A stretch of DNA of 52,966 bases, the filler included, from Jimgerdemannia flammicorona (lineage: Eukaryota), in NCBI GenBank assembly GCA_003990765.1. It is 2 parts of 2 records of this genome, joined end to end, with 100 filler letters (N's around TTAATTAATTAA, not from the genome) between each part and the next. Parts side by side here need not be neighbours in the genome. Positions count along the whole stretch, not along the records: positions 1 to 26,441 come from RBNJ01000728.1; 1 more part is not named here. The stretch is one strand, 5' to 3'. The notes below the pieces were generated by a model, which saw nothing but the letters and a program-made list of their open reading frames with translations, ran no database searches and was not told where the DNA came from. Position numbers and translations under genes: made by a program. Positions 5,732 through 30,644 of this stretch are shown here, piece by piece. The stretch's first letter is position 1. Every line of letters begins with the position of its first letter.

Positions 5732-5920
5732 ACCTAGAAATAGCTTAGTAGTCATAGTATAGTTAGATTAGTCTTGTACAACGTAACTGTGAACTGACTC
5801 AGCAGTCAGATGATCTCTTGATATGTCAGATCACTCTTGTACTACATGACTGCATTCCAACTCAGCAAGGTACTTAGTGCTACATCCATATCTAGCATAG
5901 TCCAGATAGCCCCTCACTAG

Positions 5921-6049
5921 TATATATACCCCCTCCTCCAGACCTCAGAATCTCAGACTTAAACATACAAGAACACTTCTGAACACTTCCCCACAATATT
6001 CCTTTATATAACTACTCCTAGTATAGCAATATCATGAATAGTGAATAAA
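5921..6049 (+). promoter_or_regulatory. LTR TATA box (5921-5928) and AATAAA polyA signal (6044-6049)
   Basis: CTAGTATA(T/A)ATACCCCC and GAATAAACC conserved in all five family-1 LTR copies, downstream of the U3 ORF stop. Confidence 0.6.
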
Positions 6050-6414
6050 CCTATTTAATGACTCACAAACCACTCTTAAGTAAATCTGCTCCCCGTTAGG
6101 TCCCACTCCTAACCCCATTATGAAATTTTCTAATTGGGTATTGTCTGCAGCGATACACTGATTCAACTAAGCTGGTCTTAGTTTCTTGAACTTCTTAAAA
6201 TATAGAAAATTCTGAACATCCAAAACTAGTCTGAAAAAGGACTTTGGTTGAGACATCCACCTGATCTTGAAATCAATAAGTGTAGAGGATGTACTCTATA
6301 TGAAATTAATCTTGATCATAAGAAAAAAGTCTTCCAGAATATCTAGAACTTCCAGAAAACTCTTTCAGAACTACATAATGATTACCCTAAAAAGCAACTC
6401 TCTTACATATTCCA

Positions 6415-7907: not shown

Positions 7908-7909
7908 AC

Positions 7910-7922
7910 TTGATAGCAGTGG
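7910..7922 (+). promoter_or_regulatory. Putative primer-binding site (eroded TGGTAGC.., tRNA-iMet-like)
   Basis: TTGATAGCAGTGG just after the 5' LTR. A different element (27332-27345, minus) has TTAGTAGCAGTAG; the two together suggest ancestral TTGGTAGCAG. Confidence 0.4.
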
Positions 7923-8343
7923 TTTACAATTCAATTCCGCTTCAAGATGCTTCCTCACTCAGCTATAAAACCCCTCTATGAATTTCTACAAGTTGGTATC
8001 AAGTCCAATCTCTGAACTGGAATTTATTCTAAACCATCTGACAATCTGGAGAGAATTGAACCTAACATACAAGGACAATTTGACCTCCACACCTGCAACA
8101 AGTGGGACAAACTTCATTCAAAGAAAGAAGTACTCTAGTTAAACTAGCAAATAGATGAAACCCTATTCACCGAACTCCTTGTACTACACCCAGTAAGTCA
8201 AGACAAAAAAGGTCTTATAGAAGCCTTCTTTACTCTTCTCAATAAGAGTTTTGTCAGCTCTACAAATCTGAGCAACCTAGGACAACCAGCAGTAGTTTTT
8301 CTAGCCTTAGTCCTTCACAAAGCCCAAGCCTCTGTAGCTAAGT

Positions 8344-10410: not shown

Positions 10411-10539
10411 ACTCTCCTCTTCTTAGCTTTTAATGTTCTCATTGGGGCCTTCTAATTTTTTTCTAGTGTTGTTACACTGTTTGAGAGGATAATATATAGT
10501 ATGTACAGATAGGTGCGGAGTATTTGGTTCTAGTTGTTC

Positions 10540-11830
10540 AAGAAATCATATTCCTGAACTAGGTCAGTAGCATTCTAGAGATTGGTCTTGAGTTCCCAGG
10601 TTGTATTGTAGATTAGGTAACCTTTTCATTTGACAAGATACTCAGAGTGGCTCTTGTTGCCATGTTTATTGAGGATTTGTTCAACTTTGTACTCTTCTTG
10701 GTCATTAATAATGATAGGTACAGGTGGTTTGGTGGTCTGGTTTGGAAATAGCTCGTCATCATTCTCATTATATCACTTGAGACATTGAACATTAAAGACT
10801 GGGTAAATCTTAATAGTGTCTGATAGCACCAATTTGTAGGAGGTTGGAGAGACTTATGCAATGACTTCAAATGGTCCAATGAACTTGCTGTTCAGCTTTG
10901 TAGATGGTCTGTGCTTAAGGTTATCAACTCGGTATCCTCTGATGTCTAGTAGAACTTTTTCTCCAATATCAAAGGTTTCTTCTCAGCAGTGTTGGTTAAC
11001 ATACTGTGACTGTTGTTCTTGAGCTCATAATAAATTCTCAATGGCAATCTGGCTTAGATTGTGCATTCGGAGTAAGAATTCTTCAATAGCTTCAACTGTA
11101 GAGAGTTCTTCAGTGGTTCGGATAAGTGTCAAAGGGGTGTTTGGATTTTATCCAGTGTTGGCGAAGAATGGGGTCATTCCAAGAGAGGTTTGCTTGCTAT
11201 TGTTATAGGCAAACTCGACTGTAGTGAGGTATTCATGCCAGTCATCTTATCTATAGGAAACATAGTTCCTTAGCATTTGTGCTAGAGTTCGGTTCATTCT
11301 TTCGGTTTAGCCATTAGTTTCTGGATGAAAGGCTGTAGATAGGGCAAGTTTTGTTCCAAGGTATGCATAGAGGGCTTTCCAAAAATGGCTGGTGAATTTT
11401 GGGTCTCAGTTGCTAATAATGATCCTAGGAAGACCATGATAGTGGAAGATGTTGTCAAATAATAGTATGGCTATGTCTGGTGCTGTTGCAGTAGTAGTAG
11501 TTGGTACAAAGTGAGCTTATTTGCTGAGATAGTCCACAAAGACAACAATTGCATCTTTTTCATTCTTGGTTCGGGGTAGTTGTACAATAAAGTCCATAGA
11601 GATTTGTTCTCAATTCACAGATGGTACTGGGATAGGGTGAAGTAAGCTAGGTTTTGCTAGTGTTGAGGACTTGTTTCATTGGCAGGCATCGCAGGAAGTG
11701 ATGTAGGTTTTGAGCTAATCTGCCATATGGGGGCAATAGAAGTTTCGGAAGATAACTTCATAACATTTATCAAATCCTAAATGTCCAGCTGTAGGGGCAT
11801 TATGATATTTGAATAGGATAGTCCTTCAGA
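10540..11830 (-). pseudogene. Integrase (HHCC, DDE) and C-terminal chromodomain
   Basis: [40 protein letters not shown]; chromodomain EEYKVEQIL..EYLVK*KGY..TWE. Confidence 0.85.
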
Positions 11831-11999
11831 GGTCTCAGTTGTTTGAGACATATAGTCTGTTTTTGTAGTAGATTCAGTTGGTATTAATGATACTATGTAT
11901 GCTTGTCAGCATTGTCACTATTCAGGATTTCTCGCAGTGCTTGAGCTTCCTTATCATCGGCATATACTGTAATAATTTGTTCCATGATGGAGTTTGTAA

Positions 12000-13330
12000 C
12001 CAAGGTGAGAGTTTGAATAACCTCTTCAATTGGTAGTCTGGAGATTGCATCAGCAACAATATTTTCCTTACTAGGGTGGTACTGGATTTTGTAGTCAAAG
12101 TTGGTGAGGACTTTCATCCATCTGGCTTGCTTTCGAGAAAGGGTAGCCTGTGTTTTGATATTGACTAATGATTTGTGGTCAGTCAATACGGTAAAGTGTG
12201 CTCCTTCTAGGTAGGGTCACTATTTGATCAGAGTATCTACGATGGCTAGCATTTCCTTCTCGTGGGTTGTATAGTTAATTTCAGCATCATTGAACTTGTG
12301 GGAGTGATAGGCCACAGGGTATCCTTCTTGCATGAGTACTGCTCCAAGGGCTAGATCAGAGGCATCAGTGGTAACTTCATATGACAGTACAGGGTTTGCT
12401 ACTTGAAGTACTAGAGTGGTTATCAGGGCATCCTTTAGTACTTGAAAGGCAGTATCTTGCTCAGGTCCCCAAGTTACAAGATTGTTGAAGTCTTTCTCTT
12501 GTTTTATAGTCCAGGGTTGTTCTTGTTTCTTGCTATGCTTGGTCATTTGGGTGAGAGCAGTAGCAATTTTAGCAAAGTTGGCAACAAATCGCCTGTAATA
12601 GTTTGCTAATCCCAGGAATGACTGGAGGTCTTTCAGCTTTTTGGGTCTGGGCCAATCCTTGATTGTAGAGATTTTGCTGGAGTCCACTTTGATTCCATTT
12701 GGGGTAATGATGTGTCCAAGGAATTGAATTTCTTTCAGGAGAAATTCGCACTTGCTGAGTTTTGCAAAGAGTCAGTTTTCTCGGAGTTTCAGTAGTACTA
12801 GTTCAAGGTATTCAAGATGTTCCTCCAGAGTTTTGCTGAAGACTAGGATGTCATCAATGTAGACAACAATGAATTTGTCTAGGTATGGGTGCAGGATAGT
12901 ATTCATCAGGGTCTAGAAGGTTGCAGGAGTATTAGTTAAGCAAAAGGGCATAACCAGGAACTCAAAGTATCCATAGCGAGTTCAGAAAGCTGTCTTGTAG
13001 ATGTCTTCTTCTTTCATAGCAATTTGCCAGTAACCATTTCACAGGTCAAAGGAGCTCATGAATTGTGGATTGGTGAGCCTATTGAATATTTCATTGATCC
13101 TTGGTAGTGGGCAACAGTTCTTGATGGTCTATTCATTGAGATCATAGTAGTCAATGAACATTCGCAGGTCTTTTCCTTTTTTGACAACAAAGAGGACCAG
13201 TGCGCCATAGGGTGATACACTGGGTCTAATGAATTCTTGTTCTAGGAGTTCATCAATTTCCTTCTTGAGTGCATCAATTTCTCTCGGAGATATGTGGTAG
13301 ATTGACTTGAAGGCTGGTTTGGCATCTGAG
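12000..13330 (-). pseudogene. Reverse transcriptase and RNase H
   Basis: [81 protein letters not shown]. Confidence 0.92.
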
Positions 13331-13619
13331 ATAGTCTTGATTGCATGGTCTACTGCTCATTTGGGAGGTGAGCTTTTTCAGGAATATGTCTTGAAATTTC
13401 TGGAGTAGTGGTCTGACATGGCTGTCAACTTTGGAAAAATCTTCTTCAGAGTTCTCAGGTTCTCCTTTGGATGGACAGATGGAGATAGCGAAGAGAGGGC
13501 ATTTCTTGGCCAATTTCTTAAGTTGTAGCTTATTGATGTAGGTGATCTTTAGTCCAGGGTCACTAGAATTAAGTGGGTCCTTTTTGCCTTGCAGTTTGAA
13601 GTTGTGGCGTCCTTTCTTG

Positions 13620-13960
13620 ATGGTCAGAGAATGGTTTACCTAATCAATCATGGGGTTCTCTTGTTTCAATCATGGAGTTCTAAGGATGATTTCATTGTCA
13701 GGAAGTGGTACAATTTGGAGAGTAACATGTACTTGGTAGTCTTCAATTCAGAAAGGTAGATTGCAGACTTCTTTGCTAATAACATGTGAGGTTTCATCAG
13801 CTATAGCAACTGCTTGAGTTTGCTGTACTAGAGAGGTGAAGACCTTGAGTCTGTTGGCTGTCTCTTCATTGATGAAGTTGCCTGAGGCACCACTGTCTAT
13901 CATAATCTTGACAGGTGCTCGGTTGACAAAAGCCTTAAGTGTGAGCAGTTTGTCTGATCT
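13620..13960 (-). pseudogene. Retropepsin-type aspartic protease
   Basis: VKIMIDSGASGNFI ... IIL.TPW..QENPMIDW; second copy ~20880-21210 on plus (NSGA). Confidence 0.85.
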
Positions 13961-14169
13961 AATGATGGTGATTTTAGTTGTAGGAGCTTTTCTTCTATTG
14001 GTTCTTCTTTGTACCAGTTCATTGATACAAGAGAAGCAATCATCAATCATTCGGGAAGAGTACATTCCAATGCCATGAGGGCATCGGCCACTTGGTACAT
14101 ATCCATCTTCGATCTTCTTATAGAATTGTTCTTCTTTGCTCATGGTAGGTTGGGCTGGGGTCTTGTTTG

Positions 14170-14590
14170 ATGAGCCAAATCCTTTGGATTCTCAGATTCT
14201 CAGATGGTGGGCAGTAGTTCAGGGACTTCCTTGACTGTCAGGGTTGACTCGATTTTTTCGAATAAGATCTGGGCAATGCAGAAACCAATAGGGATCTTGA
14301 AGGGTGTCCAACTGTGGTTTCGAATGAGGACAATGATTTCACCTGTATAATCTTCATCAATAACTCCTCCTTCTACTGAGAGTTCTTTCAATGCTAGGCT
14401 GCTGTGACAGCATATTCTTCCAATATGTCCTTCAGGAATTTGGATACTAATTTCTGTATAGACTTGCTTGACTTCTCAGTTGGAAACTGTAGCTTCTTCA
14501 GCTGTATACAGGTCATATCCAGCTGCTTTTTGACTTCCTTTGGTTGGGGCCTTAGCAGTTTATCTTAACTTGACAAAGTTTAATGTTCTG
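14170..14590 (-). pseudogene. Trimeric dUTPase domain between Gag zinc knuckle and protease
   Basis: Motifs AAGYDL, GRI..SSLA, GVIDEDYTGEI, IAQILF, R.SKGFGSS; second copy ~20255-20660 on plus. Confidence 0.9.
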
Positions 14591-14649
14591 GTGGTCAGGT
14601 TGTTGAGATGGTGCAGAGTGGTAACAGTTGCTCATGTTACTGTTTGGAG

Positions 14650-15700
14650 TTTTCAGTTAGGGCAGGCACTGGCCATGTATCCTGTCTTTTGGCAATAGAA
14701 GCATGCTCCACTTCTTCAAAGTTCATTCCTTTCACCTTCAGTGAGTTTTTTGAAGGTGCTTGGCTGAGTGGGTTCATGATTTCTAGGTGTCCAAGAGATG
14801 GATGTGGAGGGAGCTTGAGATACTTCATGCTTGGGTTCTTCTTTCTTGGTCCAAGTCTTTTCCTTGTTGTTGAATTGTCTTCAGGGCAGAATTGGTCCGG
14901 CTGTTAGGATTCACTTGACCATAGTCTTGATTCTTGCCAGGCACCATTGTTGGTGGTCACAACCAACTGGACAGCCTTGTTCTCGGATTTTTCTAGTAAG
15001 CCATTCAGGTAGGGCATCAAATAAATGGTCTGCTCTTATACCATTTTGTGCTTCATTGTTGGTAATATATCCTAGACCAACAGTGTTCAGGAGTGACTCA
15101 AGTTTTATACAGAAGGTTTCAAATTCTTCTTTGCTATGTATATCAAATTTGAGGTTGCGAAGTTTTACTTGGGATTCAGTGATTATGGTTTCGCTGTGGT
15201 ATTGGGCAATCATGAGTTGTTTGAGTCCAGGGGCTGCAGAATGGGCTCCATATCCTAGGGCATTGTTTGCTGCATTCTGAGCAACTACTGCAGGTTGGAT
15301 ATCCCATGTGAGGGGTTTTTCAGGAAGGGTTTACCACCATTCTTTGGCAGGTTCTCAGAAGAATGTAACAACTTGGCAGATATAGGCTGTAGTGGTAGCA
15401 AAGAGTTGTTCCAGAGTGTGGTCTTGATTGTTTGTCAGAACGCGGTCAGCAACTCGCTCATTTGTCCATTGATTGACTTCAAAGTTGGTGTCAACTACAC
15501 TAATGAAGCTTTGAACTTCTTGTGCAGTACCATTGAAGGTAGGTAGGCTCAGATTTTTGGTAGGTCAGGTCTGTTCAGCTAAGGCAGTAATGGTTGCTGC
15601 CATTATGGCTACCTAGGCTGTGAGGTCTAGAATCTGTTGGTTTGCCATATTGTTTACTGGAGGCAGTTGGACTGCTAGTAGTGGTATTACTGGTACTACT
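14650..15700 (-). pseudogene. Gag with CCHC zinc knuckle
   Basis: LPTFNGT.QEVQSF.. capsid-like start; C-F-Y-C-QKTG-H-MASA-C knuckle (consensus of two copies); second copy ~19100-20180 on plus. Confidence 0.75.
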
Positions 15701-16602
15701 TGAGGTATTGGTGCAGAGTGTGATGGGGTTCTTTGGGTCTGTGTAAGTTGCTGGAGTAATAGTTGTGGATCTGGAGTAGGGGCTTGATAGATAGCTGTTT
15801 GTTACTGAGTAGGTGTATTCTGTCCTAATGGAAGGGCATCTCCTTCGGTGGTGTATCTGGGATCAAATTCACTGAGATACTCCTCCTCTTCTTCAGTTTG
15901 GTCTCTGTGTAATTGGGTTTGCTCAGCATCAAAGTAGACAGAATCAGTTGTATATCTGATTTCAGATGGACTTAATTCAAAGTCAAGTTCAGGTTTAGTA
16001 TTGGTTTCAGATTTAGGTAGGGCTGTAGCAGGGCCTGCTTTAGGTTTGGGGTCAGGTAGTTGATGAAGGGTTTCTCTTGCTTCTTCTTTAAGAATATAGC
16101 AGGCCTTGCTGTTCTGGAATCAGTAGTATAATGTGCTGGTATGGCGAAAATCAGTAGAGTTGAGCCACTTGGCTACAGAGGCTTGGGCTTTATGAGGAAC
16201 TAAGGCTAGAAAGACTGCTGCTGGTTGTCCTAGGTCACTCAGATTTGTGGAGCTGACAAAACTCTTGTTGAGAAAAGTAAAGAAGGCTTCAATAAGACCT
16301 TCTTCATCTTGACTTGCTGGGTGTAGTGCAAGGAGTTCGGTGAATAGAGTTTCGCCTATTTGTTGGTTTAACCAGAGTACTTCTTTCTTTGAATGAAGTT
16401 TGTCCCACTTGTTGTAGGTGTGGAGGTCAAATTGTCCTTGTATATCAGGTTCAATTCTCTTCAGATTATCAGATGGTTCAGGATAAATTCCAGTTCAGAG
16501 GTTGGGCTTTATACCAACTTGTAGGAATTCTCAGAAGGGTTTGTAGTGGGGTGAGGAAGTATCTTGAAGCGGAATTGGATTGTAAAACTGATACTATCAA
16601 GT

Positions 16603-18652
16603 TGTAAGAGGGTTGCTTTTTAGAGTAACCATTACATAGTTCTAGAAGGGTTTTCTGGAAGTTCTGAATATTCTAGAAGACTGTTTTCTTATAATCAAGA
16701 TCAATTTCATATGGAGTATATCCTCTATGCTTATTGATTTCAAGATCAGGTTGATGTCTCAACCAAAGTCCTTTTTCGGACTAGTTCTGGATGTTCAGGA
16801 TTTTCCATATTTCAGGAAGTTCAAGAAACTAAGACCAGCTTAGTTGAATTGGCGTATTGCTGCAGACAATACCCAATTAGGAAATTTCATAATGGGGTTA
16901 GGAGTGGGACCTGATGGGGAGTGGATTTACTTAAGAGTAGTTTGTGGGTTATTAAATAGGTTTATTCGCTATTCATGATATTGCTATACTAGGAGTAGTT
17001 GTATAAAGGGATATTGTGGAGAAGTATTCAGAAATGTTCTTGTGTATTCGAGTCTGAGATTCTGAGGTCTGGGGGAGAGGGTATTTATACTAGTGAGAGG
17101 CTATCTGGACTATGCTAGATATGGATGTAGCACTAAGTACTTTGCTGAGTCGGAATCCAGTCACATAGTACAAGTGTGATCTGATATGTCAAGAGATCAT
17201 CTGACTGCTGAGTCAGTTCACAGTCATGTCATATAAGGCTAATCTAACTATACTATGACTGCTTAGACTATTTATAGGTTTAGGCACTGTCTGGGTAGTC
17301 CTCGATGACATCACCATCAATTGCATCATCTCTGATGAAGTAGTCATCTAGGAAGAGTGGTTCGCAGATTACCTCTCCTTGTTCACTGAGGTAATAATAC
17401 ATTGGAACTTCATCTCCATCCCACAAGATGGCATCATCAGTGTTATATGCTGGATAAGGTGTTGGTGGGCAAAGGAGGAGTGCATCATCCTCATTTTCAT
17501 CAGATTTGCTGTCTGCATACCTTCTGTAGGTTACAGTACTATGAGTCATGGGGTTGTAGTAAGCTGGTGGTTGTGGTTCATGTTGCTCATACTTGGGTAG
17601 TGGAGTGGTTGGTTCAATCTCGAGGGTTGTCTGAAGGTACAGGTTGTGTTCTCCAGTCTCTTCATTGTAGTTGAAGTAATTAGGGGTGAATACAGATTGA
17701 TATTCATGCCAGTGGTCATTGTCCCAATAAGTCTCGTATGTTGTTATGAATTGTTATAAGTTCATTGGCAAGGTTGGTGGTGTGATCAGGGTTGGCAGAG
17801 ATCCTTGGCTAGAGGTCATATTGGTGTCAGAGGGATCATTGTCTTCTGCTTCATCTTCATCGAAGTAGATTATATCATAGATGTCATTCATGGCATATCC
17901 AACTTGGGGCATTTGCAGGATATGATCATTGGGGTATGGGAAGGTTCTGTCTGTGGTTTTGACATACTCGAGGTACTTGTGGTTGAGTTCTTGTATCATG
18001 TCATTGATTTGGCCATAGGACAGGGTAGCAACCATTTCGGCTATAGTAACTCAGAGGTAGGGAATAATGGTGCTTTATTTATAGAAGAGTTCTCAATGTT
18101 TGTGGGCAATGAGCTTCTGGTGTTAAGACATCTGGGTAATGTCTATATCATGGTAGTGTTCGATCATATCTTCCAGGAGGTGGCTGATCTGGTAGTAGCT
18201 TGAGATTTGTCTGATTTGGTGGGTCTCGCTAAGTATATTCAGAGCATTCCATTGGGCTTTCACAAAGTAGAGGAGTGCTAGACTATGGATATTCATGAGG
18301 GGCAGAGGGGGTGTGGCTCGGTTGATAATGGTATTCCAAATGTCAGTATGGATACAGTGGTCATGTTTGTGTGTTTGGAAGTTGTAGTTGTTGTTTGTTT
18401 TGGTTCTCTAATTTGATGTGTCTCAGTGCTTGGTATATATACATTTGATCCTGATTGGTAAGATTTCATTTGTATAAATCTTGTGTTCTGTGACTTCATA
18501 TTGACTCAGCTTTGTGCACTGTGACTTTGGTTTGACTCAGCTTCATGATCAAGCAGGTAATTTTCAGATTTGTTCAGAGGTCACATGTGATTTCAGTGGC
18601 TTGTTCAGAGGGTAATGTGTAATTTCAGTAGCTTGGAGGTTGTGCGCTTATA
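16603..18652 (-). repeat. 5' LTR subtype A (2050 bp)
   Basis: Collinear with 8344-10410; PBS-like sequence adjacent at ~16588-16600. Confidence 0.9.
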
Positions 18653-21619
18653 CAAGTGGCTCAACTCTACCAACTTTCACCATACTAGGACCAAGACTGC
18701 ACTATATGTACTACCGATTCCAGAACAACAAGGCCCACCATATCCTTAAAGAAGAAGCAAGAGAAACTCTTCATCAACTATCTGACCCCAAACCTGAAGT
18801 AGGCCCTGCTACAGCTCTACCTGAATCTGAAACTAATACTGAACCTGAACTTGACTTTGAATTAAGTCTGTCTGAAATCAGATATACAACTGATTCTGTC
18901 TACTTTGATACTGAGTAAACCCAATTACATGGGAACCAAATCAAAGAGGAGGAGGAGTATCTTAGTGAATTTGATCCTGGATACACCAGCGAAGGAGAAG
19001 CACCTCCATCAGGACAGAATATACCTACACAGTAACAAATAGCTATCTATCAAGCCCTTACTCCAGACCTACAACTACTACTCCAACAACTTACATAGAT
19101 TCAAAGAACACCCTCACACTCTGCACCAGTATCTCAAGTAGTACCAGTAACACTACTACCAGTAGTCCAACTGTCTCCAGTAAACAATATGGTGAACCAA
19201 CAGATTCTAGACCTCACAGCCCAAGTAGTGATAATGGCAGCAACCATTACTGCCCTAGCTGAACAGACCTGACCTACCAAAAATCTGAGCCTACCTACCT
19301 TCAATGGTACTGTACAAGAAGTCCAAAGCTTCATTAGTATAGTAGACACCAACTTCGAAGCCAATCAATGGACCAATTAGTGAGTTTCTGACCACATTCT
19401 GACAAACAATCAAGACCACACTCTGGAACAACTCTTTGCTACCACTACAGCCTATGTCCACTAAGTTGTTACATTCTTCTGAGGACCTGCTGAAGAATGG
19501 TGGTGAACCCTTCCTAAAAAACCCCTCACATAGAATACCTGACCTGCAGTAGTTGCACAGAATGCAGCAAATAATGCCCCAGAATATGGAGCCCATCCTG
19601 CAGCCCCTGGACTCAAACAACTCATGATTGCTCAATACTATAGTGAAACTATGATCGCTGAATCCCAAGTAAAACTCTGCAACCTCAAATTTGATGTACA
19701 TGGCAAAGAAGAATTCAAAACCTTCTGTACAAAACTCGAGTCACTCCTGAACACTGTTGGCCTAGGATATATCGCCAATGATGAAGTATGAAATAGTACA
19801 AGAGCAGACCATTTATTCAATGCCCTGCCTGAATGGCTTACTAGAAAAATCCAAGAACAAGGCTACCCAGTTAGTTGTAATCACCAACAATGGTGCCTGG
19901 CAAGAATCAAGACTATGGTCAAGTGAATCTTAATAGCTGGACCAATTCTGCCCCAAAGACAATTCAACAACAAGAAAAAGACTTAGACCAAGAAAGAAGA
20001 ACCCAAGTATGAAGCATCCTGAGCTCCCTCCACATCCACCTCTTGGACACCCAGAAGTCATGAACCCACCCAGCCAAGTACCTTCAAGAAACTCACTGAA
20101 GGCAAAAGGAATGAACTTTGAAGAAGCAGAGTATGCTTCTATTGCCAAAAAACAGGACACATGGCCAGTGCCTACTCTAACCGAAAACTCTGAACAACAA
20201 CATGAGCAACTGTTACCACTCTGCACCACCTCAACAACCTGACCACCAGAATACTAGACTTTGTCAAGTTAAGGCAAACTGCCAAGACCCCAACCAAAGG
20301 AAGTCAAAAAGCAGCTGGATATGATCTGTATGTAGCTGAAGAAGCTACAGTTTCCAACTGAGAAGTCAAGTAAGTCTATACAGGAATCAGTATCCAAATT
20401 CCTGAGAGACATGTTGGAAGAATATGCTGTTGCAGTAGCCTAGTATTGAAGGGACTCTCAGTAGAAGGAGGAGTCATTGATGAGGATTATACAGGCGAAA
20501 TTATTGTCCTCATCCAAAACTATAGTTGGACACTCTTCAAGATCTCTATAGGTTTCTGCATTGCCCAGATCCTATTTGAAAAAATCGAGTCAACCCTGAC
20601 AGTCAAGGAAGTCCCTGAACTACTACCTACCATCCAAGGATCCAAAGGATTTGGCTCATTAAACAAGGCCCTAGCCCAACCTACTATGAGCAAAGAAGAA
20701 CAATTCTACAAGAAGATCAAAGACGGATATATACCAAGTGGCCGATACCCTCATGGCATTGGAATGTACTCTTCCTGAATGATTGATGATTGCTTCTCTT
20801 GTGTTAATGAACTGGCACAAAGAAGAACCAACAGAAGGAAAGCTCCTACAACTGAAATCACCACCATTGGATCAGACAAACTTCTTATACTTAAAGCTTT
20901 TGTCAACCAAGTACCTGTCAAGATTATGATAAACAGTGGTGCCTCAGGCAACTTTATTAATGAAGAAACAGCCAATAGACTCAAGATCTTTATCTCTTCA
21001 GTACAACAAACTCAAGCAGTTGCCACAGCTGATGGAACCTCACATGTTATTAGCAAGGAAGTCTGCAACCTACTCTTCTGAATTGGAGACTACCAAGTAC
21101 ATGTTACTCTCTAGATCGTACCACTCCCTGATAATGAAATCATCCTTAGAACCCCATGGTTGAAACAAGAGAACCCCATGATTGATTGGATAAACCATTC
21201 TCTGACTATCAAGAAAGGATGTCATAACTTCAAACTATAAGGCAAAAAGGACCCACTCAATTCTAGTGACCCTGGACCAAAGATCACCCACATCAACAAG
21301 CTACAACTTAAGAAATTGGCCAAGAAATGCCCTCTCTTTGCCATCTCCATCCGCCTATCCAAAGGAGAACCTGAGAACTCTGAAGAAGATTTTTCCAAAG
21401 TTGACAGCCATGTCAGATCACTACTCCAGAAAGCCTGAGATACATTTCTGAACCAAACCACAGAACCATCTATATCTGTCATTATTAATAATCAAGAAGA
21501 ATACAAAGTTGAACAAATTCTCAACAAATATAGTCAGAAGAACCATCCAAATGGTACAACAACACCAGAACAAATTAGAAGGCCCTGACAAGAATGTCAA
21601 AAGCTAAGAAGGGGAGAGT

Positions 21620-23112
21620 TATAAGCACACAACCTCCAAGCCACTAAAATCGTATAGCATTCTCAGAACTAATTTAGAAACCACATGCAAGACTACAAAA
21701 CAAGTTACTGAAGAGATCATCTGGTTATACGAAATATGCCAGCAAGCACAAGAACCCACCACCAAGATACAAGAATACTAGAAGAAGTACTACAACCACA
21801 AGACTGACTCCAAATCACTATAACTAGTTTAGTATACTGTATTATTATAAAAGAAAACCAAAAGTATCAAACTCAAATTAAGATAAGAAGAACCCTATCT
21901 CATCTACCAAAAGGTTTATGAATTATACTTATCAACTCAAGACCAAGATACACTATGACTATATAAGATCTCATTACTTAGTAGAAGCAAAATGCATTTG
22001 AACAACTCTGTTTGCTCTATCTGTGTCACCTCTATTAGAGAGTGACAGATGCTTCATCTGAACTCAAGAAAGCCAACATCATCGAAACCAATCTCAAGCC
22101 ATCCATGTGACAGATATTACTACTAGAAATTGCCTTAAATTATAGAAAATATCATTTCTGAGAGGTTTGAACCCCCAGCCATGACATTGGGAGCTCTCGT
22201 CCTAGATGAGAATGGCCAGTCCTCACAAATACACTAGCAGACCAAAAAAAAAGAGAACCAAGACCTGTTATCCTTATACAACCACTGCCACTAAGAACAG
22301 CCTTAATCTTGCAAGAGATAGAAGTGACAACACCTTGAAACTGATGATATCAGAAGTCAGAAAACTGCTCAGACTTTGCCAGCAATGATGTCATCAATAG
22401 TGATATCATCAAAGACTACTCAGACAGTGTCTAAACCTATAAATAGCTTAGCAGTCATAATATAGTTAGATTAGCCTTATACAATATAACTGTGAACTGA
22501 CTCAGCAATCAGATGATTTCTTGATATATCAGATTACTCTTGTACTATATGACTGCATTCCGACTCAGTAAGGCACTTAGTACTACATCCATATTTAGCA
22601 TAGTCCAGATAGCCCCTTACTAGTATAAATACCCCCTCCCCCAGACCTCAGAATCTCAGACCTAAACAATCTGAACACAACTTCTAAGTACTTTCCCACA
22701 ATACCTCTTGACACAACTACTCCTAGTATAGCAATATCATAAATAGTGAATAAACCTATTTAATAACCCACAAACCACTCTTAAGTAAATCTATTTCCTG
22801 TTAGGTCCTATTCCTAACTCCATCATGAAATTTCCTAATTGGGTATTATCTGCAGTGATATGCCAATTCAACTAAGCTGGTCTTAGTTTCTTGAACTTCC
22901 TGAAATATGGAAAATCCTGAACATCTAGAACTAGTCCAAAAAAGGACTTTGGTTGAGATGTCAATCTGATCTTGAAATCAATAAGCATAGAGGACATACT
23001 CTATATGAAATTGATCTTGACCATAAGAAAACAGTCTTTCAGAATATCCAGAACTTTCCAAAAACCCTTTCAGAACTACGTAATGGTTACTCTAAAAAGC
23101 AAACCTCTTACA
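21620..23112 (+). repeat. 3' LTR subtype B
   Basis: Follows PPT; TATAAG...CTTACA; followed by TSD TTCCA. Confidence 0.9.
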
Positions 23113-23560
23113 TTCCACATTATATATCTTCTAGAATATATATAATCTCATTTTTAGAAAATCCTGACTTATGTATAAAAACCTCTATATTGACTGATGA
23201 ACTAATATAATCTCTTTAGGAAATATCAAGTTACAACTAGAATATATTAAGAAGAAAATAAAATCCAAATATAATATTATCTTTACTATCTAAACAAAAA
23301 AGCTAATTTAAAAACTAGATAAATATATATATCTATATATATATATACTATTAAGGAATCATTAGTGAATAATAATGATAAGAATGATAATCTTTCTGAG
23401 TTACTAAAGGATAAAGATGATGAAGAAAATAATCTCTAAAAACTACTTAAGAAATATAAAGATATTTTTCAAAAATTCTAAAAACTACTATTTATTTGAA
23501 TAGTAGAATATAGCATTAAGACTACTTCTAGTTATCTCTTTCTCTACTATTATACTAGTT
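23113..23560 (+). mobile_element. Older gypsy protease/pre-RT relic that is the host of the nest (continuous with ~4200-4376 and 6408-6414)
   Basis: YNLIFRKS*LMYKNLYID**TN resembles YDLILGKPWL..NP.IDW.TN; LLKKYKDIF..VEYSI.T resembles pre-RT linker. Confidence 0.5.
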
Positions 23561-24300
23561 ATAAAGTTTTGGTAGGCAACCTTCTGAGTCTTTTTTTTAT
23601 AACTTATTCTCTCTTTATCTTAGGTTAATTTGTTATATCTATTACAGAATAGTGAGAGAGAGATAATAGTAATAAGTTGTCCCTTTATTAGTATCAGATC
23701 AGTACTTTCTCTACTTTTTTATAGTTTTTAATATCTTTTGCTATATCTGGAATATACTCATATTAGTGCAGTATCTTTTTCCTTTTGCTATTATTAATAA
23801 AGTATCATCTTAGTATATTATAAGCTATATAGAGAGTTAGCTGACCTTGAGCATCTAGTGTCAGTATAGGTTATCTGTAAGTTCTTAGTATCTATAGTAA
23901 AACTCTCTGAGCTTTGACAAGCTTTCTAGTAAGTACAGTTCTAGTATAGATAACTGTTTTTTAGATATTATATATTAGAATAAGAGAGAAAATAACTATT
24001 ATAGATAGATAGAAGAGTAATTATAGTAGACTAGTTGAGTGTCAGGCCAGGCTGGTGACAGTTATTAGGACTAAGATAAGTATTGTATTAGTGGGGCCTT
24101 CTGATTGATATAGAGTAATTAGGTAATAGATACTACTCTCAGCAGATCTTATCTTATACAAGATATAAAAGAAATCACCTTTTGGCTACAAAAACTCTCA
24201 GATACAATTATCCTCACTAGCATTTACTGAAACTAACTTAAGAAGTATTATAGCTAATCAATAAAGTACTACCACAGTACTCAAGATTACTAATACTATA

Positions 24301-24714
24301 CAATAAGTTATAGAAAGACAATGGTATACTATAGAGCTACCTATAATAGAGAAATCATTTAATAGTATCCAGAGTATAGTATAGATATATATACTTGTTA
24401 TAAATTTCACATTTCAAGATCTACCAGAATTAGACCAAGTTTTAAGAATACTTTAAGTTAGAATAGCTATTAAACTTACAGCCAGAGATGGAAAAAGAAG
24501 ACTGGATTAGAGAGTGTCAGCTCTCTCATACTCAAATTACTATTATCAAATAGGTTAATAAGTTGTTCAAAGATGATAAGCCAGCCTTAGCTTATTTTTG
24601 AGAAATAGTCCCAGAGACTTCAGACATATTAAGAGCTACTATTAGAAGAATATAATGATGCAAATTATACAGTACAAGGAGATACAACTTGTGGAAGCTT
24701 GGAAGTTCAAGTGA
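24301..24714 (+). pseudogene. Family-2 accessory ORF upstream of PPT, degraded copy
   Basis: IERQW.T.E.P..ISHF..EYFKL..KEDWI.ECQLSH.QITI..KLF..VEAW aligns with 26030-26440. Confidence 0.65.
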
Positions 24715-24755
24715 ATAGAATATTTCAGAGACAAATTACCTATTTAGGAGAAAAT

Positions 24756-25220
24756 TATAATAATTGATCTGAATTAGAAATATAAATCAAAGAAATAGAC
24801 ATTTGATTACAGTACTTGAATCTGATTTCCAAATATAGTATAGCCTTATAAATAGCAGTTATTTTTACAAATGTTAAAGTTTTTATAAATGTTAAAGTTT
24901 TTACAAATATTAAGATTTTACAGATATTAAATCTTGATAATTATCAAAGATTTAACAGATATTAAGAATTAATACTTATGAAAAGTGACTCACAGAAAAT
25001 ACAGCCATAACTTAGCTATCTTATAGCTAGCAAACTTGTATAAATATTCTAGTATCTAGAGTAAATAAACCTCAGATCAAAATAGTTCAAAGCAAAGAGA
25101 AAATAAGAGAACTAGTAAGCCTGTAGATAGATATACTTTGAACTCACCTATTCCTATATCCTGAAGACTCTGCAGAGTCAAAGAAGATCAAGTTTTTAAG
25201 ATATAGAAATCTAATATACT
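24756..25220 (+). repeat. Family-2 LTR (about 460 bp), degraded
   Basis: AGGAGAAAA purine tract then TATAATA (from TGTGATG); ~18-bp tandem repeats at 24862-24960; TATAAATA and AATAAA; homologous to the reverse complement of 25536-25992. Confidence 0.65.
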
Positions 25221-25255
25221 TATCTAATTATATATATATCTACTACATTATACTA

Positions 25256-25492
25256 TATAGTAACTAAGTTAGAACTTCTTTTTCTATAAGTTATTTTATA
25301 TAGTCAAGAGATCTATACATCTATATAATCTATATAATTATAAGTTTCATATAGTTGTGTAAATTATACAACTATGATATTGAGTAACTGTTAACTATAA
25401 TACTATATATACTATATCAGAAGTTAGATTCAGATACTGTAATCAAATTTTTATCTCCTAATTGTTGTTTCTAATTCAAATCAACTATCATA
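25256..25492 (-). repeat. Short LTR-like fragment related to the family-2 LTR 5' end
   Basis: Reverse complement TATGATAGTTGATTTGAATTAGAAA..TTTGATTACAGTA.TGAATCT matches 24756-24830. Confidence 0.4.
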
Positions 25493-25535
25493 ATATAGAT
25501 AATTAATAATAGAATAATTAATAATATATAAATAG

Positions 25536-25992
25536 TATAACATAGCGGATGCTTACTCTTGAAAGTACGTCGGATTTCTGTATCTTGAAAACTTGACTGT
25601 TCTGACTCTCGCAGAGTCTCTTGAAGTGGTAGGGGAGAGTGGGTGAGTTTGAAGTGTATCTGCCCACAGACTTACTAGTTCCTTTGCTATCTCTTTGCTT
25701 TGAACTATTTCGATCTGAGGTTTATTCACTCAAAGATACTGGGTTATTTATACAAGTTTGCTAGCTATGAGAGGGTGGCTAAGTAATAAATGAGTCATTT
25801 GGACTTTGTCAAAACATTTGGACAATGTCTAAATGTTATACTAAATCAGGGTATTCGATTTGGATAATGTCTAAGAATTTAGACAATGTCGAAATCAAGG
25901 ACTGCTAACTATAATGCTATACTACTTTGGGGATGGGTGAATCAAGTGTCTATTCCCTATTTCCTTCTTCTAAATCTGGCTGTACCATCACA
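25536..25992 (-). repeat. Family-2 3' LTR (457 bp) with PPT AGGAGGAAG at 25994-26002
   Basis: TGTGATGG start, TTATA (from TCACA) end, TATA box, AATAAA, internal TTTGGACAATGTC-like tandem repeats. Confidence 0.7.
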
Positions 25993-26029
25993 ACTTCCTC
26001 CTGAATGGATGGTCTCATCCCTGAGGCAT

Positions 26030-26440
26030 CTATTCAAACTCCCAGGCTTCAACGGTCTGTATGGTCTTGTACTGTACGATTTGCTGCATGACTGTTTCCC
26101 AATGATATCTTCTCACTTTCTCGAAGTCAGTAGGAGTTACTCCTCTCAGGTGGTCTATCGCTGCTTCATCTTCTCGGAATAACTTGTAGATCCTTTTGGC
26201 AATAGTGATCTGTGAGTGGGAGAGTTGACACTCGGCAATCCAGTCCTCCTTGGTCTTTGATGGATCCTGATTGAGCACCTGTCCAAGCTTGAAGTACTCT
26301 TGGAATTCTGCTCGATATTGATAGGCTCTAAAGTGCGAGATCTGAGAGAGATGAGTCTGCACAATACTCTGAATATCCTCATAGAATGGCTCTATGGTCG
26401 GAGGCTCGGTGGTGTGCCATTGTCTTTCGATGGCTCTTTG
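26030..26440 (-). CDS. Family-2 accessory ORF (3' part, open up to the contig end), unknown helical protein
   Basis: 137-codon stop-free frame QRAIERQWHTTEPP..EYFKLGQVL..QLSHSQITIAKRIYKLF..IDHLRGVTP..VEAWEFE*; stop ~30 bp before the PPT. Confidence 0.65.
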   Translation of the reverse strand, partial: QRAIERQWHTTEPPTIEPFYEDIQSIVQTHLSQISHFRAYQYRAEFQEYFKLGQVLNQDPSKTKEDWIAECQLSHSQITIAKRIYKLFREDEAAIDHLRGVTPTDFEKVRRYHWETVMQQIVQYKTIQTVEAWEFE

Positions 26441-26441
26441 G

Positions 26442-26541
26442 NNNNNNNNNNNNNNNNNNNNNNNNNNNNNNNNNNNNNNNNNNNNTTAATTAATTAANNN
26501 NNNNNNNNNNNNNNNNNNNNNNNNNNNNNNNNNNNNNNNNN
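26442..26541. other. Artificial contig linker N44-TTAATTAATTAA-N44
   Basis: Symmetric 100-bp spacer with stops in all six frames; flanking pieces are 26441 and 26425 bp. Confidence 0.9.
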
Positions 26542-26563
26542 AAAAAAAAAAAAAAAAAAAAAA

Positions 26564-27190
26564 CAGTTATCAAAGTTGATGACATCAAACCTATTGATAA
26601 TTCTCATGGCTTCATTAAGGTTTTTGGACTCTTCTAGTTTGATCTTGACTCCTGTGTTTTCCTTCAGACCTCAGACATAGCAGTCTATCTTTTTGTCCTC
26701 AGATATCACTGATAGCTCAAGTAAGATTGATAAGAATTATACATTATAGCTTTATACTGACTTAAGTTACTTGATATTTACTAGCTTATCTCTAACTAGC
26801 TTGATAGTATTAGCAGACTTGAACTGCTTATAAAGGGCTCTCTTGAAAGCTTCTTAGTCTCTAATTCATACATATGTATATAGATATAACTATAATATGA
26901 TTGCACTACCAGATGGCTGTATTTCCTTGAAAAAGTATGGTAGCAAATTGGACTTACATGTCTTCTTCTATTCTTGTGAGCTCGAAGTATTGATCCAACT
27001 AGAAGGTCCATATATCTGTAGATAGTCTTTCTTGATGGCTGTCAAAGATATCTGATTTGAGTGGCTTGAAACTGACTGGTACTATAGCAAAATGTGATAT
27101 ACTCATAGTTCTTGTTTTCTGCTATTCTAGTTATACTTGAAGTTCTTAGATTTAGTGGGCCATAGCATTGATCATATTCTCTATATTGAG
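26564..27190 (-). mobile_element. Ty3/gypsy gag (retrotransposon capsid) relic, family 3
   Basis: KPLKSDIFD..DIWTF*LDQYFEL..VQFATILFQGNTAIW..AFKRAL.KQF..RDKL..SV*SYN..F..ISEDKKIDCYV*GLK..LNEAMRI. Confidence 0.8.
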
Positions 27191-27346
27191 CTACAATCCT
27201 CTTACTTCTTCTATAGTAGAGAGGTCTGGCTGATAGACTAACTCTTCATGACTTATTTCAGATTTGTATGACTATTTGTAACTGGTTTCTGAATTTATAT
27301 AAGGTTTCTTAATAAGGCAAGATATAATGACACTACTGCTACTAAG

Positions 27347-27810
27347 TATAATAGTTCTAGTTTCTTTAAGAGAAAGTGGTTAAATCTGGAAGTTCTGATT
27401 AATCTAAAGTAGCTTGAAGAGATACTTAAAGGTTTAAGTATTCTTGAAGGATTTCTGAGAGAAAATATTCTGAGCTTTATTTAGGTAGAGAATAAGGATA
27501 TTTATATATAATCTAAAAGAAAGATCTGAAAGAATCTTGGAAAGAAAGATAAATGCTAAGAAATAAGTTCTTAGCAAAGCTGACTAATACTATTCTACAA
27601 TATTCTGAAAGGTTCTATGACTAGCTAAGATAAGATACTTAGTACCAAGAAGAGATAAGAATATTCTAGTGATGTCTGGACACTAAGAGAAGATTTCTAA
27701 GCAAGTAGAAGGTAGTGGAACATAGTAGAATATTTAAGAAATAATAAGAAAAGACTAACTAAAAGACATAAAAATATACTAAGACTAAATATGACTGTGA
27801 AATTGTTATA
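27347..27810 (-). repeat. Probable 5' LTR of family-3 element
   Basis: PBS-like TTAGTAGCAGTAG directly downstream; AATAAA and TATA-like motifs on minus; eroded TA..TA termini. Confidence 0.45.
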
Positions 27811-30505
27811 CTATGATATGTTAATAATAATACATATATTTGACTGATATTAAAGAAATAAATAAAAATATTTATATATTATCTAGCTCTAATTACATCT
27901 TTTATTTGATAAAATATATAAAGAGCTTTTATATCATCACTTATTAATACTCAAACAGATTCAGTACTATAACTTACTTGTATCTTGTACTTATATAGAC
28001 TATATATATATCTACTGACTTTGATAGATAATGATAGATTACCTATTTATTTCTTCTCTATATAGCTGAAATTCTATTGTTGGTCACCATAGTTATATAA
28101 ATCATAGTAATATTTACTAATTACTGATTGAATTACTATAGTAAGAGAATACTATATATATATAAAGAAGATATTAGTATTTTTTATTATCAGACACATC
28201 AATAAATTATATATATTTAAATACTTACAGATTTGCCTTCACATCTAACAATCTTTCTATTAGTATTCTTTTAATTCTCAAAATCACATTTTTTATAAAT
28301 ATATATACAAATATAGTCTGGAGTATCTTCTATTAAAAAAGTGAAATCAAACTTAGGGTCATATTCTTGATGAAAAATAGTATAGACTTTAATGATTATA
28401 AAATATATAATAATAATAATAAATAAGAAGTCTAATATATATATATCAATATATATTAGAAATAGTTACTTATCAATTATAGTTTTTTACTATAACTATA
28501 CTAATATCATAAATCTCTTACTTTTGTATAAGAGAGATATAATCTACTATAGAGGGTTCTTTATAATCATCATCATCAAGATCACCTTGAGCAGTATCAA
28601 TAAGAGCTAGAAACTTTTTAATTTGAATTATTTCAGAATTATCAATGGCTTCTTCTTTAGCTGAAATACTAAGTATGCCTATATGATCTTTGATCTCATC
28701 TTATTGAATTCATGTATCAACAGCCATATTAATTATAGTATTTATTATGATATAAAATTGAAATTATATTGATAAGAGTAATATATATATATATATATAT
28801 TGTATATTTGTTTAATCTTTACTCAATTGTACTCACTTATTATAACTGTTACATTCTTTTAATTTATCTATTATCTTTTTGATACTCTATATAATTCTTT
28901 ATCTATCTGTATCAGCATCTGAACATGTTGTAAGAAATTGATCTATATTATTTTAATAATTAATATATTCTTCATACAGGTGTTATAATTTAAGGATAAT
29001 ATAAAGAATTTGAGAAATTAGTATAATTTGATATTTTGTTTATTAAAATATATGATTTACTAATTATTTCTATCAATTTCTGTCTATTTTAAATAAATTG
29101 ATCCTTATCTTATATTTAGAAACTATATTTTTAAAAATATGCCAATTAGCCATATTGTGGTATAGATCTATAAGTTGTTTGATTATTCTATTCTCCTATT
29201 GATAAATAGTCTTTACAATATTCTTTACTTGAGGAATAATAGTAAGAGTGAGTATACTTGAGATAATATATATTACTATTAATGATAACTTGACTATTTT
29301 AATGAATTCAAGTATATCTACTTATAAAAGAGTATTTCCAAAAGGTCTCTAGATCTTATGGCAGTAATTGTTATATGCAATTCTCAAAAGACTTCTCAGA
29401 TACAGTTTGGTTTATATATCTAAGTACTTTATCATATCTATAATCAATTCTTAAAAACTCTAGATCCTTGTAAACAGTGATAGAATCTTGAATATTTATT
29501 ACTAAACCACTATTCCTAAGCCTAAGAAACTTGTACAACTGCTTCTGTAACTCATCTTTTTTTTATATTTCCAGATAGCTTTGCTCTTTTAGATAATTTG
29601 TTATATATTTATTTAAGAAAACTTTTCAAAATACTTACATATAGATGACTAAGAAGAATATTGATAGGAATGTTGTACTTATTCATAAGAAAAGCTGATA
29701 ATAAGTTAGTAGTAACTTAGGTGGACAAGAATAGGGTGATAACAACTTATATAGGTAGACAAAGATAAGAAAGGGCTAGCAACAGCTTGAGATGACAAAG
29801 ATAGATCAGTAATAGCTTTAGATGATAAAAATAGATAAGTAATAACTTGGTTAAATAAAAAGATAATAGTAAGGATATAGTTATACTATTTGACAATAGT
29901 GACAGCTGATATAGGTGTAGAAGTATTAGGAGTAGATAAGGTAAACAAAGTATAAGAAGAAGATGATATCATATAAAAAACTTAATTATATAAATTTACA
30001 TATATAAATTATAGAAAATATAGTTATCAAAGAGATTAAGGTCTTACTAATTCTCAAAAAAGACCTTGATCTAAGTCTAGTTAGTCACAATAGACTCCAT
30101 ACCTCAAGGTACTTATGTGAACTTCAATTTTTTTTTTTACAGCTAAATTGGTATACCTTAGTAATAAGAATTAATATTTTTTTATCTATTTTGTACTTAT
30201 ATTTAGAGATAAGATTTAAAAGTTTATATTTTTTAAAATTATAATAGTCTTTAAAAAAAAATTTATCAATAATTTTTTATAATAATTTCACCTTAGATAA
30301 AAAATAAAAATTTTTATAGAAATTTTTTTTTTTTTTTTTAAAAACTTTAATCTATCTGTTAAATGATTTAAAAGATAATCTCAAAGAGATAAACTAATAT
30401 TAATATTAATATTTTTTAATAATAATTATTATTTATTATATTTTAATTTTAATAATATAAAAGTTTTAATTTTTTAAAAAATAGTTATAAACAATTAAAT
30501 AAAGA
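27811..30505. other. Extremely AT-rich decayed repeat-derived DNA (origin not resolved)
   Basis: Near absence of CpG, abundant TpA; abrupt return to normal composition at ~30505. Confidence 0.5.
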
Positions 30506-30644
30506 TCTAAATATTTTTTGTAGTCACAACCCGAAACCTGATGACGTTGTTTCTTACATCCATTTTGTCCAATGTGCTTGTACTTGTTGATTCCTTCTCT
30601 CTCAAAGCGTTCAACGTAGGCGAAGGACCCGTTGTGCATCCAAC

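Follow-up and report, generated by a model that had tools for sequence, protein, structure and literature searches.

Additional open reading frames (ORFs) in long terminal repeat (LTR) retrotransposons are a known kind of gene. Accessory genes separate complex from simple retroviruses, and in LTR retrotransposons such genes are rare, mostly unstudied and, in fungi, almost unknown. In complex retroviruses they are found towards the 3' end, overlapping the U3 region of the LTR or lying in it, as with sag of mouse mammary tumour virus (MMTV), nef of human immunodeficiency virus (HIV) and tas/bel of the foamy viruses, and the foamy-virus Tas protein binds DNA and activates the LTR of the virus that encodes it. 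Here we examine a stretch of 52,966 nt from Jimgerdemannia flammicorona (GenBank assembly GCA_003990765.1; hereafter the window), in which a small gene, ORF3, stands between the integrase and the 3' LTR of one Ty3/gypsy family, and a longer ORF with a partial likeness to it lies inside the LTR of another such family, LTR-A. ORF3 is a separate third gene, at the site that env occupies in some gypsy elements; the protein family that it represents is small and new, whereas slots of this kind are known. Taken as a whole, the explanation that we favour, namely that ORF3 is such a third gene, that the LTR-A ORF is its relative and that the protein is a regulator acting in trans, appears moderately probable, and its parts differ in strength.

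Several described systems invite comparison. Some of the fungal Ty3/gypsy elements treated by Novikova, Smyshlyaev and Blinov (2010; PMC2864245) hold a dUTPase between protease and reverse transcriptase (RT), and in a figure legend of that article such elements are labelled with an "add. ORF ... unknown function"; as far as the legend goes, these are like ORF3 in being extra ORFs of fungal gypsy elements, a comparison made by description only. The extra gene brtn of Boty-like gypsy elements in Botrytis cinerea (Zhao et al. 2011, cited in Porquier et al. 2021, PMC8365987) is small as well, but to judge from the title of the original work it is antisense, whereas ORF3 is in the sense orientation and overlaps the end of pol. 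The env-like third ORFs of Drosophila errantiviruses and plant Athila elements, in the portions of PMC2864245 and PMC13524379 that were available, occupy the same slot between pol and the polypurine tract (PPT) or 3' LTR and need a subgenomic RNA; ORF3 is unlike these in specifying a helical, soluble protein of 153 residues with no signal peptide or membrane segment. In bdelloid rotifers, LTR retrotransposons have captured extra ORFs common to different retroelement types (PMC5408684), but the host is an animal, and nothing in the available portion of that article points to kinship with ORF3. The 'crapaud' element of Podospora (PMC10787394) has LTRs with variable 5' halves, and the available part of its description mentions no ORF in the LTR. 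Apart from the legend and brtn, no mention of extra ORFs in fungal elements came up, and a description of the ORF3 protein family was not found in the literature, which is searchable by words but not by sequence.

ORF3 as a separate third gene

The element that hosts ORF3 is represented by L001, a 6479-bp metagenome contig and the one relative among the 305 pattern matches of a metagenome scan, which reads in the order LTR, primer-binding site (PBS), gag (zf-CCHC), protease, dUTPase, RVT_1, RNase H, Integrase_H2C2, rve, ORF3, PPT and LTR. The Pfam spans (gag-asp_proteas 418-507, RVT_1 892-1057, RT_RNaseH 1145-1248, then Integrase_H2C2 and rve) give a pol domain order that fits a Ty3/gypsy (Metaviridae) LTR retrotransposon, and that is what the host of ORF3 is. 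Its LTR reads TGTGA...GTTACA, and a TGG-containing sequence after the 5' LTR is the putative PBS. In this contig ORF3 occupies 153 codons at 5795-6256 and has an ATG of its own, set in ACCATGG. It is shifted by +1 against the pol frame, shares 44 nt with the end of pol (pol stop 5836-5838) and ends ~40 nt ahead of the AGGAGGAAG tract and the LTR. The adjacency of integrase and ORF3 is found twice more inside the window (24147-24290 with 24250, and 4109-4373). The original prediction had itself raised the possibility that the ORF is simply the in-frame C-terminal tail of a known integrase; this was checked and is ruled out by the +1 frame, the separate ATG and an overlap of 44 nt in L001 and ~41 nt in the second window copy. 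Two properties of L001 do weigh against relying on it unreservedly, in that the contig opens with the tail of a second ORF3 copy and an LTR, and may be a collapsed or chimeric assembly, and in that its pol carries one frameshift and one in-frame stop.

In the window itself, ORF3 copy 1 runs on the minus strand from 26440 to 26033, where the last 136 of ~153 codons are intact (protein P0001), and closes with a TAG stop at 26032-26030. A hidden Markov model (HMM) of 28 family sequences, including a second subfamily introduced below (model A4), finds this copy in the six-frame window at an independent E-value (i-E) of 3.1e-54. The motifs that the original prediction had read at 26030-26440 are present, with the correction that the copy is on the minus strand and is truncated at its 5' end, which falls in a linker, leaving ~17 codons including the ATG missing (homologs begin MANNRST). 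The linker spans 26442-26541 (44 N at 26442-26485, the 12 bases TTAATTAATTAA, and 44 N at 26498-26541), a layout which we take to be that of an artificial six-frame-stop spacer for joining contigs; as such, the sequence past it is unusable as ORF3 context, and its two sides need not be contiguous. A ~22-nt homopolymer (poly-T) run borders the linker on the far side.

Downstream of copy 1, the PPT AGGAGGAAG (26002-25994, minus) lies 27 nt past the ORF3 stop and 1 nt ahead of a 457-bp LTR (25992-25536, minus); the stop itself is 37 nt ahead of this LTR. The latter opens with TG and closes with TA, where relatives have CA; within it, TATAAATA is found at position 241 and AATAAA at position 267. 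The same AGGAGGAAG tract is present at both LTR junctions of L001. The slot originally proposed, with an ORF that ends ~30 bp before the PPT and outside a 457-bp LTR, is thus borne out in the window and in L001 alike. The LTR end is further backed by contigs of other sequencing runs (20 runs from 11 studies are listed, none of them as RNA), which diverge at 25538 into L001-type PBS sequence; the contigs of one run presumed to be RNA (X20) cover LTR parts only and are neutral on expression.

Copy 2 stands on the plus strand at 24250-24714, inverted relative to copy 1. A diverged copy had been predicted at 24301-24714, and it exists, although its extent was understated. Its former ATG is now ATA, several stops interrupt it, and A4 matches it at i-E 3.9e-23 and 7.4e-6. 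Compared with copy 1 it shows 169 C>T or G>A changes, 66 T>C or A>G changes and 109 transversions, a pattern which argues that copy 2 is both a separate family member and mutated towards A+T. A remnant of the integrase C-terminus at 24147-24290 (plus; L001 integrase residues 206-253, 54% identity, E 1e-10) overlaps the start of copy 2 by ~41 nt, with ORF3 in the +1 frame, and a degraded, transition-mutated LTR follows at 24756-25215 (plus). A third fragment of the family, at 3570-4373 (plus), runs from integrase core to C-terminus (3570-4196) and continues with about the first 26-35 codons of ORF3 from ~4270; it is heavily mutated and is cut at 4374 by LTR-A, and its integrase end and ORF3 start (4109-4373) align with a score of 720 against a best of 420 among 200 shuffles. 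When a continuation of this third copy was sought behind the nested LTR-A block (23113-23700), the score was under the shuffle mean. Between the facing LTRs of copies 1 and 2, the interval 25230-25535 is A+T-rich, and a degraded LTR start in it (25408-25494) matches 24754-24842 inverted at 79%. The ORF3-LTR copy here, which is young, seems to have inserted into older, mutated remnants of the family to which it belongs.

The family is also represented in protein databases. Among 5.8 billion proteins searched, 14 candidates came up, of which 11 were ORF3 homologs at 61-81% identity, several of them of ~150 residues and with the MANNRST start, and an exhaustive phmmer search over 1.84 billion representative proteins gave four matches at E<=0.001; the family is real but rare. 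Of the 664 candidates of a profile search, 26 proteins scored E<=1, and these include a second subfamily of ~165 residues which is ~25% identical to the first, the start position and architecture being common to both. Two members of subfamily 2, P0021 and P0027, are encoded on contigs of 7.8 and 5.9 kb. Relatives were absent from the viral_contigs scans (none among the 36 and 79 pattern matches of the A1 and A6 alignments), and a protein language-model atlas returned only unnamed clusters for P0002 and no usable match for P0021. Over the 136 codons compared between window copy 1 and L001, 67 non-synonymous differences at 327 sites (proportion per site, pN, 0.205) stand against 67 synonymous differences at 81 sites (pS 0.83, saturated), a disparity which argues for clear purifying selection on ORF3. 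One might contend that ORF3 is open merely by chance, in a stretch between integrase and LTR that codes for nothing, considering that P0001 matches no Pfam family and that the family yields just those four matches among the 1.84 billion representatives. We hold this to be extremely improbable: the excess of pS over pN extends over all 136 codons, the frame is open in the window, in L001 and in database proteins at 61-81% identity, the second subfamily retains the same length and architecture at ~25% identity, and the helical model described below is a confident one (predicted template modelling score, pTM, 0.69).

A more elaborate alternative would have ORF3 fused to the C-terminus of integrase through a +1 frameshift in an 82-nt overlap window, the fused part being a tethering module that replaces a chromodomain. 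The ORF3 frame is indeed open in L001 from 5756, 82 nt before the pol stop and in +1, and an equal frame relation is seen in window copy 2; +1 frameshifting is used by Ty3 and Ty1. Furthermore, no chromodomain is detected at the C-terminus of the L001 integrase, for which Pfam gives only rve and rve_3, while the LTR-A family has one. Such a fusion is nevertheless very unlikely in our judgement. The ATG in ACCATGG heads ORF3, the two subfamilies, at ~25% identity, begin at one alignment position, and the relative in LTR-A starts only past the PPT, at 375 nt inside the LTR, from where it could not be joined to integrase; no frameshift signal was seen, although none was looked for.

The ORF inside LTR-A and its likeness to ORF3

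The second gypsy family is represented by a minus-strand element that spans 8340-18655. Its 3' LTR (8340-10411, minus, 2.07 kb) is closely preceded by a PPT and contains TATAAATA at position ~1582 and AATAAA at ~1705, and its 5' LTR (16599-18655, minus) is 90.6% identical to it; a third copy, with the same LTR boundaries, lies on the plus strand at 4374-6407. The pol of this family is 23-35% identical to that of L001, and a chromodomain-like sequence was read by eye at ~10530-10700. A dUTPase between protease and RT is found in both gypsy families, L001-type and LTR-A. Just before it is a Cys/His-containing stretch (L001 566-613; window 13988-14134 and 20695-20841) which is 49-55% identical between the two families, whose RTs are 35% identical.

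The ORF of ~340 codons in LTR-A occupies LTR position 375-1391, and the equal boundaries of the three LTR copies show that it is inside the LTR. In the 3' LTR it lies at 9021-10037 (minus; at least three stops; ORF3-like domain 9690-9956, motifs 9732-9992), in the 5' LTR at 17280-18296 (minus; five internal stops; domain 17958-18242, motifs ~18042-18242) and in the plus-strand LTR at 4673-5590 (plus; internal stops; domain and motifs 4790-5062). All three copies have a TATAAATA or TATATATA box at LTR-A position ~1548-1582 and an AATAAA at ~1671-1705, both downstream of the ORF. As this conserved TATA box lies downstream of it, we infer from the TATA and poly(A) motifs that the ORF lies in U3, which lends support to the placement claimed in the original prediction. 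The part of the ORF behind the shared motif is matched at 63% identity by a database protein, P0016, and is thereby shown to be a conserved protein.

A second TATA-like box, TATATATA, is found in two of the three copies at LTR-A ~213 (~10199 minus, and again in the 5' LTR), some 160 nt before the start of the ORF, and could be the ORF's own promoter, letting solo LTRs express it. Further along, past the stop of the ORF but ahead of the TATA box, CTGACTCAGCA occurs twice at LTR ~1450-1540 (in the 3' LTR copy, minus ~8870-8960); its core, TGACTCA, is the AP-1/Gcn4-type basic leucine zipper (bZIP) site, and may be an enhancer for a host factor.

That the first ~90-100 residues of the LTR-A ORF are a remote homolog of ORF3 is, although not established, quite probable on the profile evidence. 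Searched with A4, the six-frame window returns the three LTR-A copies (i-E 9.9e-6, 0.0037 and 0.12) next after those of ORF3 itself, and the only other non-self match is at E 6. An HMM made from subfamily 2 alone, and hence without the subfamily of the window, matches LTR-A at 3.4e-5. None of 5000 composition-preserving LTR-A shuffles reached the real score with A4 (19.9 bits, against 15.0 for the best shuffle) and none of 5000 did so with the subfamily-2 HMM (19.4 against 8.8 bits), while one of 5000 did so with a shallow profile; reversed frames gave a best E of 0.43. The near-invariant residues of the family (G, I-A, R/K, L-F, H) are matched in LTR-A.

The opposing explanation is that these are two unrelated accessory ORFs, their likeness being due to chance or helical convergence, and that no shift of the LTR boundary ever took place. 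We find this rather doubtful, and a number of observations do count in its favour and against homology. BLASTP aligns ORF3 and the LTR-A ORF at E 0.01, with 26% identity and 23% gaps, and hhalign with a first, 13-sequence profile gave a probability of 1.6% (E 0.031), which even the 28-sequence profile raised to just 23% (E 8.9e-4, 93 columns). The HMM scores of the LTR-A match are low, at 14-20 bits, the three LTR-A copies are mutually non-independent, and the pair was chosen by eye from the whole window. In the reciprocal direction, a shallow LTR-A profile detected no family member at better than E 0.025; 10 of 28 members and 14 of 2800 shuffles reached 5.5 bits, two unrelated window ORFs scored 6.6-8.1 bits, and most family members scored among the shuffles. 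The small, 457-bp LTR and LTR-A show no significant DNA similarity (score 44, best of 100 shuffles 54). The LTR-A ORF is furthermore interrupted by stops in every window copy, its sole database relative, P0016, covers only the part behind the shared domain, and the evidence for its placement in U3 consists only of consensus TATA and poly(A) motifs.

Against the two ORFs being unrelated stands, first, the behaviour of the signal, which rose on the addition of independent and more distant sequences, as well as the 3.4e-5 match by the HMM that lacks the window's subfamily. The three LTR-A copies are the top non-self matches of the six-frame window, no reversed frame and none of the 5000 shuffles came near the real score, and the match is colinear over ~90 residues and takes in the near-invariant positions. 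Last, both ORFs read in the sense direction, and they have the same position with respect to pol. The original prediction of one gene family accordingly receives support from the HMM (9.9e-6; 0/5000 shuffles) and a weaker signal from hhalign and the reciprocal search; an insignificant HMM-HMM score, which it had named as the outcome that would tell against it, was obtained with 13 sequences, and the signal then strengthened with 28 (E 8.9e-4).

If the homology is true, one gene family stands before the PPT in one lineage and behind the PPT, inside the LTR, in the other. Given that the PPT defines the LTR boundary, it is reasonable to postulate a change of priming site as the route by which a pre-PPT gene came into U3, or the reverse; that the gene was inserted into the LTR independently is just as possible. 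Between the small LTR and the part of LTR-A behind the ORF no significant DNA similarity was found, although a TATAGTTAG-like motif and similar TATA contexts occur in both. The putative arrangement in LTR-A is like that of MMTV sag, HIV nef and foamy-virus tas in that a small non-structural gene lies beside or inside U3, and ORF3 with its probable U3-embedded relative would form a natural pair on which to consider the movement of LTR boundaries and the gain of regulatory genes. Were the LTR-A link due to chance, ORF3 would still be a new conserved retrotransposon gene, and one that aids the annotation of 'hypothetical protein' ORFs.

Possible roles of the ORF3 protein

The ORF3 protein is predicted to be soluble and all-helical. 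The AlphaFold model of subfamily 1 has a predicted local distance difference test score (pLDDT) of 65, and that of subfamily 2, based on 28 sequences, a pLDDT of 75 and a pTM of 0.69; both are all-helical, and the latter has a well-defined core of ~138 residues, one helix of which is 39 residues long, and a disordered tail behind it. On the Kyte-Doolittle scale the highest mean over 19 residues is 0.19 for P0002, 0.74 for P0021 and 1.35 for the LTR-A ORF, where the usual threshold is 1.6. There being no membrane segment, ORF3 is not env-like, as had been stated at the outset from the sequence, and an env gene is ruled out.

The subfamily 2 core has an isoelectric point of 9.9, and its 29-residue tail is aromatic-rich with a net charge of -11; the net charge of the LTR-A ORF is -44. 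Both subfamilies close with an acidic motif and a conserved Trp, and an acidic, aromatic and disordered tail is found in two of the three clades. The protein may also self-associate. Predicted as a homodimer without alignment input, it scored 0.48, the best of three controls being 0.00, and among proteins of solved structure, 21 of 30 same-chain pairs but none of 23 single chains attain the mark for a dimer. Contact agreement between the runs was at least 61%, with a partner pLDDT of at least 64, and the interface, formed by residues 40-94 of both copies, is antiparallel and symmetric; the prediction supports self-association as a symmetric homodimer.

The LTRs of the small family hold repeat arrays in U3. 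In the window four partly palindromic repeats of ~19 nt lie just upstream of the TATA box, at 25797-25895 (direct repeat D1, inverted repeat I1). At a comparable place in U3, the 5' LTR of L001 has four units of ~21 nt (174-277) and its 3' LTR at least five units of 18 nt (6396-6479). These arrays of 18-21 nt differ in sequence between LTR variants of the family, and an 18-nt insertion polymorphism at 25865 in other sequencing runs suggests that the copy number of the repeat varies.

As ORF3 follows gag and pol and begins 5.8 kb into the genomic RNA, it would need a subgenomic RNA for its expression, one that is probably spliced, or else internal initiation. Acting as a dimer, the protein would most plausibly serve as an activator of LTR-directed transcription or as a nucleic-acid-binding adaptor, for which the partly palindromic U3 arrays are candidate targets. 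It is the combination of a helical core, basic in subfamily 2, with an acidic and aromatic tail, a predicted dimer and the U3 arrays which makes a regulator of its own LTR the likeliest role. That ORF3 acts in trans in this manner on its own element is nonetheless an idea that we advance tentatively, as possible and not as probable. The functional guess is modelled on Tas, to which the likeness is in genome design only; no sequence or fold similarity to the retroviral 3' genes was found with Pfam, PDB, Foldseek or VIA-align, and complex retroviruses infect, whereas the ORF3 elements are non-infectious and have fungal hosts. Should ORF3 regulate its own LTR, it would offer a handle on retrotransposon activity in genomes that mutate repeats aggressively.

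Several results are at odds with a DNA-binding regulator. Pfam assigns no family to P0001 and none that recurs among the 28 family members, and a sequence search of the PDB gave a best E of 0.28; a helix-turn-helix model of Pfam is touched by two of the 28 members, at E 0.031. Foldseek returned no match at E<=0.001 for either model, and the best Z of an exhaustive VIA-align search was 5.3 for subfamily 1 and 3.6 for subfamily 2, which is background for helical models. Transcription regulators do occur among the weak fold rows (e.g. 2cwe_A, Z 5.3, rmsd 4.8, 79 residues aligned), none of them above background. A helix-turn-helix may be present in the conserved core, judging from the helix pattern alone and with no fold match behind it, and the subfamily of the window does not have the long acidic tail. 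The structure prediction that had been called for to look for a helix-turn-helix or other nucleic-acid-binding fold has therefore given all-helical models, while fold matches have stayed at background.

A further extension of these ideas, which we consider quite unlikely, is that some fungal gypsy elements are "complex retrotransposons" that encode a dimeric LTR-binding activator, composed of the helical core and an acidic and aromatic activation tail, which would recognise the palindromic arrays of its own U3, the gene of LTR-A having entered U3 by a shift of plus-strand priming. Under such a scheme each LTR-A, solo LTRs included, would carry a copy of the gene, possibly with the TATA-like box at ~213 as its own, and such copies could provide all members of the family with the factor in trans.

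Repeat mutation and the wider window

The repeats of the window bear a mutation pattern of the repeat-induced point mutation (RIP) type. The LTRs of the minus-strand LTR-A element (8340-10408 and 16599-18650) differ from each other by 171 transitions and six transversions, and 111 of the 171 transitions are at CpA; transition bias at CpA is the classical RIP signature of ascomycetes. The original prediction had mentioned similar motifs in hypothetical proteins of arbuscular mycorrhizal fungi, and this mutation pattern points elsewhere. In the A+T-rich blocks at 23114-25530, 26542-30540 and 3570-4373 the CpG observed/expected ratio is 0-0.03 and TA/AT exceeds 1, and in the genic part of the window (31000-52966) CpG observed/expected is 0.98. 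Many of the stops in the LTR-A ORF (TAA, TAG or TGA) stand where other copies have Q, R or W.

A host that mutates its repeats so heavily would put pressure on its elements for counter-measures, and ORF3 might consequently be a counter-defence or host-interaction factor, directed against silencing, repeat mutation or methylation, or else an adaptor for nuclear entry or assembly, which would bind host proteins through its acidic, Trp-containing C-terminus. The conserved acidic C-terminal motif with its invariant Trp, present in both subfamilies, is compatible with such a role, as is the failure to detect a DNA-binding fold. We regard it as unlikely, however: Pfam and PDB sequence searches show no likeness to a known suppressor or adaptor, the elements of the window are themselves heavily mutated, and specific positive evidence is lacking. 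Regulation of its own LTR is the role that we prefer for ORF3.

Pfam on six-frame read-throughs of 26542-30600, in the A+T-rich block past the linker, gave a weak Retrotrans_gag remnant at ~26659-26853 (minus; E 0.0094, under the Pfam cut-off), which shows no similarity to the gag of L001; the same search over 22900-24300 gave no match. Retrotransposons are nested in 4374-23113, with the minus-strand LTR-A element inside or beside a plus-strand copy of the same family, which comprises the LTR at 4374-6407, an internal part at 18653-21432 and LTR pieces to 23113. By eye, no matching target-site duplications were found around the nested elements. An extra 1.5-kb duplication is seen at 5670-6405 and 7168-7905. 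The interval 31000-52966, at 44-53% G+C, holds ordinary fungal genes, among them those for a PH-domain protein ('Fungal PH-like domain'), an F-box protein and a double-bromodomain protein.

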